From the sequence record PZ445527.1: a stretch of DNA of 64,000 nucleotides; one strand, 5' to 3'. The position numbers and the translations under genes are program-made. The stretch is from a phage. Under the pieces are notes generated by a model. The model was not told the origin of the DNA. It worked only from the letters and a program-made list of their open reading frames with translations, and did no database searches. Shown here piece by piece: positions 5,517 through 63,397 of the stretch; positions within the stretch are counted from its first letter, which is position 1, and each line of letters begins with the position of its first letter.

Positions 5517-5707
5517 CGCGCCCGCGATGGTTAGCCTGCTAATGATTAGGGTGTTACGTGTCGCCTTGTGTGATCGTTAGCTCGCTAACTAATTTTCAAG
5601 CCTCCTCCAATTTTGCCCTTGTTTTAGTATCCCCGCCAAAATTAAACGCGTTAGAATGCGATTCAGGACGTTTTAGCGGTATATTAGAATTATTCACTGC
5701 ATAGGAA

Positions 5708-59707: not shown

Positions 59708-60016
59708 ATGAGCGAACAGGTAAATCAAAACTATGAGGGACACGTTGATGACCAGTCCATCATACTTTGGGAGAAGGAGGGGGAACAAGTAAGATTAACA
59801 GTATCTGAATTTCGTGGGAATCTATACATGGGTATTCGTTACTGGCTTCTTGATATTAATGATGAGTGGTTTCCAACGAAATCTGGCTTCTCTTTTCCTT
59901 ACACCCTAGAAACAACATCACAGCTTTTCTATGCGTTTACACAGATTCTTAGCGAATCTGAGGTTTTACATGAAGTACAGAAACGAGCTGAAGAACTCAA
60001 AGCCAAGAATGCCTAG
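59708..60016 (+). CDS. hypothetical protein 102 aa
   Basis: ORF track. Confidence 0.55.
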   Translation: MSEQVNQNYEGHVDDQSIILWEKEGEQVRLTVSEFRGNLYMGIRYWLLDINDEWFPTKSGFSFPYTLETTSQLFYAFTQILSESEVLHEVQKRAEELKAKNA

Positions 60017-60030
60017 TTCTTGGCTTTTTC
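60002..60030 (+). terminator. rho-independent terminator (gccaagaa...ttcttggc-TTTTT)
   Basis: 8-bp stem overlapping stop codon, then T5 tract. Confidence 0.65.
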
Positions 60031-60043
60031 TTTATAAATGTAT

Positions 60044-60072
60044 TTGCTTTCAACTCAGTTTTGTTATATAAT
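60044..60072 (+). promoter_or_regulatory. sigma70 promoter (TTGCTT-17-TATAAT) for ligase
   Basis: Consensus. Confidence 0.7.
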
Positions 60073-60103
60073 ATTTATATAAATTAATGAGAGATATAAA
60101 TAA

Positions 60104-61075
60104 ATGACTAATGTAAAAGAATTTATTAAACGCTGTCAAGAAGCATATTATCAAGGCATGTCTTTAATCTCTGATGAAGAATATGATCGTCTGGTAAAAC
60201 GCTTCCCGTTAGAGGAAGAGATCGGGCCTAAGGGTGATATTCCACACCTATATCGTATGTATTCTTTACAGAAAGTTTATTATAATCGTGGGGATAAACC
60301 ACCATTCAATCCTTTAGGTCAGGTGGAAACCGATAAGTTAGATGGTTGTGCAATTTCTCTGCTATATATTAACGGTGAATTTGTTCAAGCATTAACCCGT
60401 GGTAACGGTATTCTGGGGAATGATGTCACAAGCAACGTAAGATTGCTGAACATCCCTAAAAAGATTTCCCAAAAAGTACCTACCCAAATCACTGGTGAAG
60501 TTCTAATTACAAAGGAAGTAGAAAATAAACGTAACTTTGCCTCTGGTGCTATTAACCTCAAAGATAGCAATGATTTTGTACAACGCATTGGAGAAGGCGG
60601 TTTAATTTTTGTTGCTTATGGTATCCAATGTTCTGCTGAATCTGTAGGTATTACAGAAGCATACTTAAAAGATATGCTTTGGCTAGAGAATGAGAACTTC
60701 TTAACAGTTGTTAATGTACGTTCCTTCTTTAAATGGATTCCAACCGACGGTAAAGTTGTTCGTATTAATGATAATAATAAATTCTTCCGCGAAGGGTGGA
60801 CTAATAAATTCCCTCGTGGAGCATTCGCTATTAAAGAGGATGAAGAAGGCGAGATTACAACTCTTACTAAAGTTGAATGGGCGACAGGAGCGTCTGGTAA
60901 AGTAACTCCAGTTGGTTATTTCGAACCGGTAATTATTGATGATGCAGTTATTACAAAAGCCACCCTTAATAATGTAGATTATATTAAATCACTAGATTTA
61001 GAGATCGGATGTCAGATTAGAGTAGTACGTGCAGGCGGTGTGATACCAAAGATTGTGGAAAGAGTTTATGAATAG
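60104..61075 (+). CDS. NAD-dependent DNA ligase, N-terminal part (adenylation + OB-fold) 323 aa
   Basis: Adenylation motif KLDG (ETDKLDGCAISL) and LigA-like blocks; ends before the Zn-finger/HhH/BRCT region. Confidence 0.8.
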   Translation: MTNVKEFIKRCQEAYYQGMSLISDEEYDRLVKRFPLEEEIGPKGDIPHLYRMYSLQKVYYNRGDKPPFNPLGQVETDKLDGCAISLLYINGEFVQALTRGNGILGNDVTSNVRLLNIPKKISQKVPTQITGEVLITKEVENKRNFASGAINLKDSNDFVQRIGEGGLIFVAYGIQCSAESVGITEAYLKDMLWLENENFLTVVNVRSFFKWIPTDGKVVRINDNNKFFREGWTNKFPRGAFAIKEDEEGEITTLTKVEWATGASGKVTPVGYFEPVIIDDAVITKATLNNVDYIKSLDLEIGCQIRVVRAGGVIPKIVERVYE

Positions 61076-61709
61076 CGGAGTTTATCCACTGATAGTAAAA
61101 GGATATAAATATGTTGGCTATTCCAGAAATATTGATAGAAGGTTTAAGGAGCATACATATACTTATGTTACTAATCTAGGTCATATAGACTCCCATATCC
61201 CGAGAAACTTACTAGGTGTACAGGTACAGAAGTCAGATATAAGCATAGAAATTCTAGAGTATATTTCTCCGGAAGAGAGTACTGATGTATTTTTAAGGGC
61301 AGAAGATTTGTGGATACAGAGGATTTGTCCAGAGCTAAATACAAACGTTCCTTTATCTAACTTAGTCGAAGCAGTAGAATATTGTATTTCAAACCCATCT
61401 GAAACGTATAAATCAGCGGCCTCAAAGTTCAACATTACACCTAAAATGTTAGAGCATGTTGCCTCTGGAGGATATAACTCCTTAGGATGCATTTTATCAA
61501 GAAGTACTTTAGAACTATTTCGTAGTAAGAAATATAAAGAACTAATATTAGTACACGAAAATGGGGCTAGGTTTGTAGCGACGTCTTACCTTGAATTACA
61601 TAGATTATCTGGGCTAGATAGGCATAGAATATCTGACCTACATAAAGGCAAGTACCCCACCTTTAAAGGGTGGACCCTTTTAACCCCATCTACCATATCG
61701 GAATTATAA
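61068..61709 (+). CDS. GIY-YIG homing endonuclease inserted between the two ligase ORFs
   Basis: GIY-YIG motif near N-terminus (GVYPLIVKGYKYVGYSRNIDRRFKEH); ATG 61068 overlaps ligase stop. Confidence 0.7.
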   Translation: MNSGVYPLIVKGYKYVGYSRNIDRRFKEHTYTYVTNLGHIDSHIPRNLLGVQVQKSDISIEILEYISPEESTDVFLRAEDLWIQRICPELNTNVPLSNLVEAVEYCISNPSETYKSAASKFNITPKMLEHVASGGYNSLGCILSRSTLELFRSKKYKELILVHENGARFVATSYLELHRLSGLDRHRISDLHKGKYPTFKGWTLLTPSTISEL

Positions 61710-61810
61710 AGTGGTTATTGACATTTTCGCCGCTTAGGTATATACTATTATCATTCAGTTGAGGGATAGAAAGTTATGGCGAGGGTAAGCAAAGTTAATT
61801 AAAATTGTAG

Positions 61811-61839
61811 TTGCTAAATGCTTAAATACTTGCTATAAT
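61811..61839 (+). promoter_or_regulatory. sigma70 promoter (TTGCTA-17-TATAAT)
   Basis: Consensus upstream of second ligase ORF. Confidence 0.65.
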
Positions 61840-61869
61840 ATTTATATAAATTGATAAGGAAGAAATTTG

Positions 61870-62637
61870 ATGAAAATCGAAATTCCAACACAATGTCCCT
61901 CTTGTGGTTCTAAGCTAGATCTTGTCAACGGACAATTATTCTGTCGTAATAAGTCCAACTGTCCAGCGCAATCAAGTAAGTTAATTGAGAACTTCTGTAC
62001 AAAAATGAAGTTAAAGGGCTTTGGCCCAAAAACTATTGAGAAGCTGGAGCTGACGAAGATTTCAGAACTATTTTACCTAACCGAAGAAGATTTGGTTAGA
62101 GCCGTGGGTAGCAAGGTTGCCGCTAAGTTAATTAGCGAATTAAATACTAAAGTTCGCGGAGACATTGACTTTGGTTCAGTTCTCGGTTCTTTAGGAATCC
62201 CTCTGATTGGAGAGGTTGCAGCAAAGAAATTATCCCAAAATTGCACTAGCTTCCACGATGTGAAGGCTGACGGCAAGGCTGGAGAAAACTATAAAGCCTG
62301 GCTAAATTCCCCACAAGGCAAGGATGTAATCGAATTACCGTGGAAATTCTCAAAGGGTGTTAAAGCTGACATCATTACTGATGGTCTAGTAGCTCAACCA
62401 AATGGAATCGCGGTATGTATTACCGGATCTTTGCAAGATTTTGCAAATAGAACGGATGCAACAAACTATTTAGAAAGTCTAGGGTATACGGTTAAGAAAT
62501 CCGTTACTAAAGACGTCAAATACCTAATCTGTGAGGATGAATCAAAACGTTCTTCCTCATCTTATAAGAAAGCCGAAACGAATGGGATAGAAATCCTGTC
62601 GATTAAAGAACTATTGGAGAAAAATAATAATGTCTAA
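61870..62637 (+). CDS. NAD-dependent DNA ligase, C-terminal part (Zn-finger, HhH, BRCT-like) 255 aa
   Basis: Cys4 zinc finger (CPSCGSKL...CRNKSNCPAQ) then HhH- and BRCT-like segments. Confidence 0.8.
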   Translation: MKIEIPTQCPSCGSKLDLVNGQLFCRNKSNCPAQSSKLIENFCTKMKLKGFGPKTIEKLELTKISELFYLTEEDLVRAVGSKVAAKLISELNTKVRGDIDFGSVLGSLGIPLIGEVAAKKLSQNCTSFHDVKADGKAGENYKAWLNSPQGKDVIELPWKFSKGVKADIITDGLVAQPNGIAVCITGSLQDFANRTDATNYLESLGYTVKKSVTKDVKYLICEDESKRSSSSYKKAETNGIEILSIKELLEKNNNV

Positions 62638-63397
62638 ACTGAACTGGAACGTAGAAGGTGTAACCGAGTCTCTGAAAGCAAAAGCCACTGCTCTGGGTGT
62701 TGCTGTAATCTCTCAAGAACAAGTAGCTGCTATCGCTGCTGAACTGGCCGCTGAAACTGGTAAAGATGTTACCGCTCGCTCTGTTGGCTCTAAACTGCGT
62801 AAAGAAGGTTTTGAAGTACAAAAAGCTAACGAAGTACAGAAATCCCCGTGGACTCCTGAGCAGGAAGCTGAACTGGTTGATTTCCTGAACGCTCATGCTG
62901 GTCAGTATACCTATGCTGAAATCGCTGCTGCTGTAGCTGGTGGTCAGTTCGGTGCTAAGCAGGTACAGGGTAAGATTCTGAGTCTGGAAATGACCGCTTC
63001 TGTTAAACCAACCGAAAAAGCTGCTGCTGTTCGTTCCTTCACTCCGGATGAAGAAACTGATTTTGTTAATCAGGTTGTTGCTGGTGCTACTATTGAAGCT
63101 ATCGCTGCTCACTTCGGTCGTAATATCAAGCAGATCCGTGGTAAAGCTCTGAGCCTGCTTCGTGAAGGTCGTATCGCTGCTATGCCGGTACAGGAAACCT
63201 CAAGTGCTAAAACTCGTGAAGATCTGTTAGAAGGTCTGGATCTGGTTAACATGACTGTTGCTGAGATCGCTGAGAAAACTGGTAAGTCTGAGCGTGGTGT
63301 TAAATCTATGCTGTCTCGTCGTGGTCTGGTTGCTAAGGACTATGATGGTGCCGCTAAGCGTGCTAAACTGGATGCAAAAGCTGCGGCTGCTGAATAA
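62630..63397 (+). CDS. abundant DNA-binding-like protein with four internal repeats (possible T5 D5 analogue) 255 aa
   Basis: Four repeats of a motif ([KR]..G.....L.[KR].G), biased high-expression codons; size matches the 29-kDa T5 D5 protein as remembered. Confidence 0.5.
   Translation: MSKLNWNVEGVTESLKAKATALGVAVISQEQVAAIAAELAAETGKDVTARSVGSKLRKEGFEVQKANEVQKSPWTPEQEAELVDFLNAHAGQYTYAEIAAAVAGGQFGAKQVQGKILSLEMTASVKPTEKAAAVRSFTPDEETDFVNQVVAGATIEAIAAHFGRNIKQIRGKALSLLREGRIAAMPVQETSSAKTREDLLEGLDLVNMTVAEIAEKTGKSERGVKSMLSRRGLVAKDYDGAAKRAKLDAKAAAAE

Follow-up and report, generated by a model that had tools for sequence, protein, structure and literature searches.

A naturally split NAD-dependent DNA ligase and a rare, predicted GIY-YIG homing endonuclease at the ligA-ligB junction of a T5-like phage

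Organisation of the ligA-ligB locus

In a 64,000-nucleotide stretch of phage DNA (sequence record PZ445527.1; the whole stretch is referred to as the window), an NAD-dependent DNA ligase is encoded by two genes, ligA and ligB, and a gene for a GIY-YIG protein is located between them. A megablast search of the window against phage genomes matched 444 records, which were T5-like without exception; the best match was the Salmonella phage RUS_R2 with 96% identity, and T5 was 95.8% identical. As judged from these matches, the window originates from a T5-like phage of the Demerecviridae. The list of open reading frames (ORFs) and the raw sequence reveal that the three genes are co-directional and located on the plus strand (Table 1). 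The same three-gene layout at 60104-62637 had been given in a preliminary description of the window, and the ORFs, the Pfam matches and the raw sequence proved it to be accurate. This also applies to the reported overlap between the start of the GIY-YIG gene and the stop codon of ligA. The overlap comprises 8 nucleotides (nt), with the ATG at 61068 being embedded in the ligA end TAT GAA TAG, whose stop codon occupies 61073-61075. In the ORF list, the middle plus-strand frame spans 61053..61709, and all homologues of its product begin at the ATG 61068 (MNSG...). The ligB frame is open from 61867, contains an ATG at 61870 and encodes 255 amino acids (aa) when counted from this ATG. The ligA stop codon and the ligB ATG are separated by 794 nt.

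Table 1 Features of the ligA-ligB locus in the window (aa, amino acids; NTase, nucleotidyltransferase; SD, Shine-Dalgarno)
Feature	Position	Strand	Remarks
Terminator-like hairpin and T-run	59999..60027	+	12-pair stem, then TTCTTTATAA; closes the upstream gene right before the ligA promoter
ligA promoter region	60024..60098	+	Equivalent to the promoter annotated in T5 (L001 1625-1699)
ligA, N-terminal ligase subunit, 323 aa	60104..61075	+	Putative short Ia, adenylation/NTase (KxDG lysine K78), OB fold
Recoded ligA 3' tail, last 11 codons and stop	61040..61075	+	Holds SD-like GGAAAGAG and the endonuclease ATG
Predicted free-standing GIY-YIG homing-endonuclease gene, 213 aa	61068..61709	+	N-terminal GIY-YIG; C-terminal NUMOD/I-HmuI-like DNA-binding region
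ligB promoter 1, TTGACA-17-TATACT	61718..61746	+	Promoter scan; equivalent to T5 P-K 28b
ligB promoter 2, TTGCTA-17-TATAAT, extended -10 TG	61811..61839	+	Promoter scan; equivalent to T5 P-K 28a
ligB SD sequence AAGGAAG	61856..61862	+	Read in the sequence; 7 nt ahead of the ATG 61870; kept in relatives
ligB, C-terminal ligase subunit, 255 aa	61870..62637	+	Four-cysteine zinc finger, HhH, BRCT

The two-subunit DNA ligase of the Demerecviridae

LigA matches the Pfam domains DNA_ligase_aden (1.3e-23) and DNA_ligase_OB (1.9e-21) as well as PHROG 3359 (2e-173). It contains a nucleotidyltransferase (NTase) domain with the KxDG lysine and the motifs III-V, which is followed by an OB fold, as is typical of NAD+-dependent ligases. 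LigB matches BRCT (5.7e-8), HhH (HhH_2) and PHROG 3498 (2e-135), and the four cysteines of its zinc finger are visible in the translation (CPSC...FCRNKSNC). Thus, the zinc finger, HhH and BRCT modules of the LigA family are also present, on the second polypeptide. Among 52 homologues with identities down to 47%, the LigA residues K78, D80, G81, R99, E132, K244 and K266 are invariant, as is Y15, and E25, E26, Y27 and D28 are nearly so. The latter five residues, which lie in an N-terminal segment about 35 aa shorter than that of the E. coli enzyme, resemble the Tyr/Asp set of domain Ia, the domain that specifies NAD+, and the segment may represent a short Ia domain. In the AlphaFold2 model of LigA (pLDDT 88), the helices 2-16 and 24-33 precede the NTase domain. 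Moreover, the ratio of nonsynonymous to synonymous substitution rates (dN/dS) is 0.03-0.06 for ligA and 0.05-0.12 for ligB, which holds even at dS values up to about 1. The strong purifying selection and the invariant catalytic residues argue that both halves of the ligase are functional.

The residues 214-320 of LigA align with the residues 284-390 of E. coli LigA, and the residues 3-122 of LigB with 402-529. On the E. coli enzyme, the phage LigA ends near residue 393 and LigB begins near residue 400, and on PHROG 3869, a profile of full-length phage ligases, LigA covers the positions 9-381 and LigB 388-654. The break in the ligase falls at a clean domain boundary, namely in the linker between the OB fold and the zinc finger. 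LigB consists of 255 aa in the window and of 259 aa in T5; the difference of 4 aa lies in a variable stretch at ~62330-62390, where the identity to relatives is 82-90% and which is presumably a linker ahead of the BRCT domain.

The two-piece ligase is found throughout the family. A tblastn search with a fused LigA and LigB query matched about 1020 phage records over most of the query length. Among the matches listed, those with at least 48% identity always consist of two pieces and all belong to the Demerecviridae, whereas those with at most 28% identity, for instance from the Clostridium phage c-st and jumbo phages, always consist of one piece. The hosts of the phages with a two-piece ligase are Escherichia, Salmonella, Klebsiella, Serratia, Proteus, Vibrio and Aeromonas. 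In a collection of 5.8 billion proteins, the best 120 protein clusters matching LigA, with identities from 96% to 46%, all have lengths of 307-337 aa. A fused close relative was not found in the same collection with a 220-aa query spanning the junction, for which the best 120 clusters were only half-length. The reference record of T5 lists both genes under the names ligA and ligB, and the intervening 202 bp contain the promoters P-K 28b and P-K 28a and no endonuclease gene. A gap of about 200 bp with the same tandem promoters is usual in the Demerecviridae. The split in T5 concerns the same domains (Ia, NTase and OB versus zinc finger, HhH and BRCT), and gene order, flanking genes and tandem promoters agree as well; however, whereas the gap of T5 is empty, the 213-aa GIY-YIG gene overlaps the ligA stop codon in the window and the tail of ligA is recoded. 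Because T5 and its relatives lacking the GIY-YIG gene are split too, the split of the ligase is independent of the presence of the endonuclease. In the preliminary description the GIY-YIG gene had been presented as the divider of the ligase, which is misleading, as the gene is a rare and optional occupant of a pre-existing gap.

The two-piece ligase is already known for the T5 family, and there is nothing new in this respect. The split T5 ligase has been credited to the T5 genome paper from 2005 (PMC1684257), and its two parts were designated as ligase subunits A and B in later T5 papers (PMC3632103). Moreover, the LigN-deltaC truncation illustrates that an Ia, NTase and OB fragment of a related enzyme can adenylate itself (PMC1684257). 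In the PDB, LigA matches 9hu3_A (E=1e-103; TM-score 0.85 for the LigA model), and LigB matches 9hu3_B, which is named 'DNA ligase subunit B' (E=1e-82). The entries 9HU3 and 9I5I, which were released in January and February 2026, are entitled 'PR1 phage heterodimeric DNA ligase in complex with 21-mer nicked DNA'; a paper on the structure of the heterodimeric ligase was not found in a literature search. Each of the two genes is thus homologous to the matching chain of the heterodimer, as for a split ligase of the T5/PR1 type. By analogy to these two PDB entries, LigA and LigB would assemble non-covalently around nicked DNA.

The regulatory signals in front of ligB are conserved as well. The consensus promoter at 61811-61839 that had been noticed before was recovered by a promoter scan (10 of 12 positions, with TG), and a second promoter at 61718-61746, which had been overlooked, matches the consensus better (11/12). 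Over the whole region, the scan yielded 4 sites, compared with a mean of 8.3 in shuffled sequences, that is fewer than expected by chance. Since the scan statistic gives no support, the promoter assignment rests on the T5 annotation and on the conservation across the family. When aligned, the window and T5 do not differ in the two ligB promoters, the ribosome-binding site or the ATG. A comparison of 12 diverse loci over the 190 nt preceding ligB revealed that TTGAC(A)-17-TATACT and TTGCT...TG.TATAAT are kept as a tandem pair from T5 to the Vibrio and Aeromonas phages, and TTGC and T.TATA.T of promoter 2 are invariant in all 12. The promoter cores are also recognisable in Proteus and Serratia Demerecviridae. 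Furthermore, the spacer at 61700-61870 is 100% identical between the window and the phage Sepoy, and the flanking coding DNA is 77-95% identical. The conserved tandem promoters and the identity of the spacer suggest that ligB is an old, separately transcribed gene. Both ligB promoters are located downstream of the GIY-YIG gene.

A GIY-YIG endonuclease family specific to the ligA-ligB junction

The product of the middle ORF matches the Pfam GIY-YIG domain with 22.6 bits, which is exactly the gathering cut-off, and its relatives score 31-52 bits. In the joint alignment of the family, G4, Y6, Y15, G17, R25, H29 and E79 are invariant, and N91 is invariant inside the first of two subfamilies (subfamily I), which gives the conserved Tyr, Tyr, Arg, His, Glu and Asn set of the GIY-YIG catalytic domain. 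A profile of the family retrieved the catalytic domain of I-TevI (1mk0; 1e-18) and I-HmuI (1u3e; 2e-4), of which the residues 97-168 match the profile positions 127-198 (E=1.8e-4). Relatives of the protein match NUMOD1 and I-HmuI_NUMOD-like and share a conserved GK....KGW motif. Thus, a C-terminal DNA-binding module of the NUMOD/helix-turn-helix type is recognisable by the family profile and in the relatives; the window protein alone has no Pfam match over its C-terminal region. A single-sequence phmmer search of the PDB with the endonuclease gave no match even at E<=10, and only the family profile reached I-TevI. There is no family for the endonuclease in PHROGs, and the single-sequence AlphaFold model has a pLDDT of 43, which is too low for use. 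The gene is intact and its dN/dS ratio is 0.13 at a dS of 0.42 (compared with phage SP3). Taken together, the middle gene can be described as a predicted free-standing GIY-YIG homing endonuclease gene of a previously uncharacterised family.

The endonuclease has several features in common with I-TevI and the Seg-type GIY-YIG enzymes of T4-like phages: the GIY-YIG domain at the N-terminus, which contains the residue set named above, the C-terminal NUMOD-like module, the sporadic distribution, and the changes in the flanking DNA within a few tens of nt, on the side on which enzymes of the I-TevI type cut (~25 bp from the insertion site). The sequence similarity is very low, however, and unlike the intron-borne I-TevI type the window gene is free-standing and coupled to the upstream host gene. 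The idea that the GIY-YIG protein makes the nicks in T5 genomes was rejected, as T5 itself lacks the gene. In GenBank, the endonuclease is labelled as hypothetical or, in SP3, mis-annotated as 'ligase subunit A' (MG387042, L003 1884-3489). In addition, the endonuclease start was called about 100 nt too late in the Serratia phage Kamaji (L021 1498-2214), and the ligB start was called too far downstream in the Vibrio phage PG07 (L006 4261).

The family is very rare. Among the approximately 1000 records with a split ligase, four phages carry the endonuclease gene. A tblastn search with the endonuclease detected only RUS_R2 and SP3 among 50,697 phage records, and a word-indexed protein search and a scan of IMG/VR retrieved the SP3 copy only. 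An exhaustive phmmer search among 1.84 billion representatives gave 8 matches. The closest two, P0002 (53% identity) and P0003 (~35%), are encoded on metagenomic Demerecviridae-like contigs, where their genes abut the ligA stop codon and lie exactly between a ligA of 320/321 aa and a ligB of 249/251 aa; the remaining matches are ordinary GIY-YIG endonucleases with NUMOD-like modules. A second subfamily at the same site was found by means of unusually long gaps, in the Klebsiella phage AmPh_EK80 and in Kamaji. The AmPh_EK80 protein has 219 aa (Pfam GIY-YIG 1.4e-5), and the Kamaji protein is 58% identical to it. An hhalign comparison aligned the AmPh_EK80 protein end to end with the first subfamily (probability 93%, 193 columns). 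Five divergent carrier lineages (window/RUS_R2/SP3, the loci L011 and L012, AmPh_EK80, and Kamaji) thus have the gene at the same junction, and their ligases have diverged to 62-72% identity. The identities of LigA, LigB and the endonuclease to the window proteins are 71, 72 and 53% for L011 and 68, 69 and 35% for L012. The carrier AmPh_EK80 and the non-carrier RCIP0070 have LigA proteins that are 99% identical and LigB proteins that are 100% identical, and L011, whose LigA is 90% identical to that of AmPh_EK80 and RCIP0070, carries the other endonuclease subfamily. The family is thus distinct, very rare and specific to the ligA-ligB junction. A paper describing an endonuclease between ligA and ligB of T5-like phages was not found in the literature search.

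The recoded end of ligA

Carriers and non-carriers within one lineage differ in about the last 11-12 codons of ligA. Between the window and T5, 14 of the 36 nt in the ligA tail differ, compared with 62 of 936 nt in the rest of the gene (Fisher p=9e-8), and the encoded peptide is nearly unchanged (PKIVERVYE in the window, PCIVERVYD in T5). Between AmPh_EK80 and RCIP0070, 12 of 33 nt differ in the tail and 30 of 930 nt elsewhere (p=2e-9). The DNA of these two phages is near-identical until about 33 nt before the ligA stop codon, where the carrier AmPh_EK80 begins to encode PKIVERVYE* by other, mostly synonymous codons; the endonuclease gene comes next, and the identity resumes right after this gene. 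Moreover, the last 33 nt of ligA agree at 28 of 33 positions between the window and AmPh_EK80, although the preceding 300 nt are only 67% identical. The opposite holds true for the window and T5 (20/33 in the tail, 87% in the preceding 300 nt) and for AmPh_EK80 and RCIP0070 (21/33 and 97%). Thus, the ligA tail groups by endonuclease status and not by phage lineage.

The junction without the gene, the naive T5-type sequence, reads ...GGTGTAATCCCGTGCATAGTAGAGCGAGTATACGATTAATACATAACCC..., and a 66-mer of it is present in 214 records at an identity of at least 95%; the recoded junction without an endonuclease gene was encountered in the phage Spc35 only. In six of the seven carriers listed, ligA ends with TAT GA(A/G) TA(A/G), in which the endonuclease ATG is embedded. 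The exception is L012, where ligA ends with GTA GAA TAA and the endonuclease begins at a GTG just past the stop codon. Of the five empty alleles listed, four end with TAC GAx TAA and contain no ATG, and the exception is again Spc35 (TAT GAT TAA). The gene is therefore sporadically present at one fixed site among close relatives, with altered flanking sequence. This pattern of presence and recoding fits intronless homing, and the mobile unit probably consists of the recoded ligA tail together with the endonuclease gene.

On the downstream side, the last ~36 nt of the endonuclease ORF (61673-61709) are also present in the T5 spacer (L001 ~2687-2720). The shared 3' end could be the footprint of a deletion or, equally, the result of an ORF running on into flanking DNA. 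The sequence ACCCTTT, which follows the stop codon of the subfamily-I endonuclease gene in L011 (~5622-5640), opens the stretch that is shared with the T5 spacer and is not present in RCIP0070 or AmPh_EK80. This is a weak indication that the cassette may have left a 3' footprint in T5-type phages without the endonuclease.

Mobile GIY-YIG ORFs in fungal mitochondria, such as that in the Allomyces atp6 gene, bring along a replacement 3' end of the host gene. Likewise, the mobile unit at the ligA-ligB junction would bring a recoded host-gene end, and the host protein stays intact because its terminal segment is included in the unit. The fungal ORFs are in-frame fusions that leave the old terminus in place downstream, whereas the window has an out-of-frame overlap of 8 nt and no displaced ligA terminus was seen at its locus.

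The intergenic region as a slot for accessory genes

The content of the gap between ligA and ligB differs among phages. The gap is empty and ~180-200 bp long in T5, Spc35, Sepoy, RCIP0070 and AhSzw-1, it contains a gene with a NADAR domain in the Proteus phage Stubb, one to three unrelated small ORFs in the Vibrio phages PG07, Dax and VPT02, and a 64-aa ORF in the Salmonella phage smaug. As far as these genomes indicate, the gap is a family-wide intergenic slot for accessory genes. The Stubb gene (L005 3492-4109; Pfam 1.6e-31) begins at the same ATG with an 8-nt overlap, here within the ligA end TAT-GAG-TAA. The placement of a NADAR gene, which is related to NAD/ADP-ribose, between the halves of an NAD-dependent ligase may reflect anti-defence cargo. 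The 64-aa ORF of smaug (L019 1268-1462) has no Pfam match. Its ATG overlaps ligA in the same way as that of the endonuclease gene, and its product begins with MNSS (MNSG in the endonuclease); the ORF might be what is left of the endonuclease cassette or might have taken its place. A gap ORF of 186-187 aa in Dax (L007 4127-4687) and VPT02 (L020 1473-2036) gave a weak DprA-like match (DNA_processg_A, E ~0.008), and in Stubb a gene annotated as DprA-like is located directly upstream of ligA.

The 5' end of ligA looks like a second site of cassette-like recoding in the DNA alignments. A 62-66-aa ORF that is annotated in RUS_R2, Spc35 and Sepoy (L002 1700-1900, L004 1703-1891 and L010 2308-2508) overlaps the start of ligA by 8 nt. 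SP3 has DNA that matches this extra ORF, and the window and T5 are without it. The identity between the window and RUS_R2 falls to 77% at the 5' end of ligA (60120-60180). In the ligA promoter stretch, the window is 100% identical to T5; a simple promoter scan passed over this promoter because its -35 hexamer is weak. A spurious Rfam match to a miRNA corresponds to the terminator-like hairpin in front of this promoter.

Proposed scenario and alternative explanations

It is very probable that the locus combines a naturally split two-subunit ligase with a free-standing homing endonuclease in the gap and that no splicing takes place. In this scenario, ligA would be read from the promoter upstream of 60104, and ligB, which has a ribosome-binding site and an ATG of its own, from the two conserved sigma-70 promoters at 61718-61746 and 61811-61839. 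LigA and LigB would be translated separately, with neither RNA nor protein splicing. With its ATG inside TAT-GAA-TAG, the endonuclease gene would be coupled to ligA at the level of translation, and since both ligB promoters follow the endonuclease gene, the expression of ligB should stay undisturbed. When a carrier and an endonuclease-free phage infect the same cell, the enzyme would cleave the endonuclease-free DNA within or close to the conserved 3' terminus of ligA, presumably a few tens of bp upstream of the insertion point, which is the geometry known for I-TevI. Repair from the genome of the carrier would then copy the gene together with ~33 nt of recoded ligA tail. This tail, which contains the start signals of the endonuclease, probably also protects the genome of the carrier from being cut.

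Several observations weigh against this scenario. The recoding of the tail can in part be explained by the need of any overlapping gene for a ribosome-binding site and an ATG, and the NADAR gene of Stubb and the small ORF of smaug share the TATGA(A/G)TA(A/G) arrangement. Furthermore, the family is very rare although target-like sequence is abundant, which is unlike an efficient homing element. The window copy itself scores exactly at the Pfam cut-off and has a proline at position 7 (GVYPLIV; codon 61086-61088). This position belongs to the first beta-strand of the GIY motif and is occupied by leucine in RUS_R2, SP3 and P0002, and the window copy could be impaired or less active. Finally, the assignment as a heterodimer leans on homologues with about 52% identity, a figure that applies to LigA only.

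The preliminary description had left the choice between a ligase that works as two polypeptides and a single ligase frame that is restored by the self-splicing of a group I intron with the endonuclease gene inside. GIY-YIG endonucleases, for example I-TevI, are often encoded in introns, and the two halves of the ligase abut, with only ~6 linker residues being unaccounted for. However, a search with Infernal and all Rfam families at E<=10 over 59900-62800 revealed no intron and only four irrelevant sub-threshold matches, and nothing intron-like was detected with Rfam at E<=1 in eight related loci. Moreover, the endonuclease-free relatives are still split and have no continuous ORF; their ligA stop codon and ligB ATG are in place, and the ~200 bp in between consist mostly of the two promoters. 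An uninterrupted close relative was not observed among the tblastn matches listed or the best 120 protein clusters. The gap content also varies freely among phages, from empty to NADAR and unrelated ORFs, and the homologous enzyme has been solved as two chains. A group I intron is thus very improbable, and the reading as two polypeptides is favoured by the fixation of the split in the family, the purifying selection, the separate signals of ligB and the structure of the PR1 heterodimer. It is also hardly credible that the gene is merely disrupted and that the phage relies on the LigA of its host, as the stop codon and the 794 nt between the halves might suggest. Both halves are under selection, with dN/dS values of 0.03-0.12 that persist at dS values of up to about 1, and none of the catalytic residues varies among the 52 homologues, whose identities go down to 47%. 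Furthermore, the arrangement is kept in about 1000 phage genomes and the homologue is a DNA-bound heterodimer; the pseudogene was rejected on the basis of the dN/dS ratios and the conservation. Split inteins occur in phage replication genes, and protein trans-splicing could in principle join the halves after translation. The chance for this is negligible, since Pfam found no Hint or intein domain, there are no spare residues between the OB fold at which LigA ends and the zinc finger at which LigB begins, and the PDB homologue consists of two separate chains.

A less far-fetched but still unlikely alternative is that the GIY-YIG protein is a domesticated or accessory nuclease, for example directed against competing phages or with a regulatory role, that is vertically kept. 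In favour of domestication, the gene is under purifying selection (dN/dS 0.13 compared with SP3), the divergence of subfamily I ranks with that of the ligases in L011 (71/72/53%) and L012 (68/69/35%), and the family is very rare despite the abundance of naive sites. On the other hand, the near-identical genomes of AmPh_EK80 and RCIP0070 differ in the presence of the gene, two subfamilies occupy the same site in one genus-level lineage (L011 and AmPh_EK80), and the ligA tail travels with the endonuclease across genera. Moreover, homing and the exclusion of competitor genomes are not mutually exclusive.

Origin of the split and perspectives

It is tempting to ask whether the GIY-YIG family is the surviving descendant of an element that split the ancestral ligase of the Demerecviridae, as in other 'genes in pieces'. 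Precedents are the genes nrdA-a and nrdA-b of the Aeromonas phage Aeh1, which are associated with mobE, and the topoisomerase genes 39 and 60 of T4, which are associated with mobA. As in the window, two genes that part at a domain boundary encode an essential replication enzyme and flank a free-standing endonuclease gene, and the products reassemble non-covalently, as is predicted for LigA and LigB. MobE and MobA are HNH endonucleases, however, and the window enzyme belongs to the GIY-YIG type. All of the closest homologues of the window enzyme are encoded next to the ligA stop codon, and the ligases of the five lineages concerned have diverged to 62-72% identity. T5 and most of its relatives would then be descendants that lost the endonuclease and kept the split. 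However, the Vibrio and Aeromonas members that were examined lack the endonuclease, the two subfamilies in one genus-level lineage imply horizontal movement, and the intergenic gap might simply be a safe landing site. Since the split is a constant trait of the virus family, >99% of whose members are without the endonuclease, the causal link between the endonuclease and the split is circumstantial; an origin of the split by this element is therefore a tentative and rather doubtful possibility.

The new aspects of the locus are the rare, junction-specific GIY-YIG family, the mobile unit that probably carries the tail of its host gene, and the gap as a family-wide slot for accessory genes. Provided that the endonuclease is active, the conserved 3' end of the T5-type ligA would be the predictable target of a new site-specific GIY-YIG enzyme. 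Active copies would also offer a tractable means to study intronless homing and marker exclusion in T5-like phages, a group in wide use in phage therapy and biocontrol. Moreover, the locus lends circumstantial support to the view that homing endonucleases are creators of split genes.

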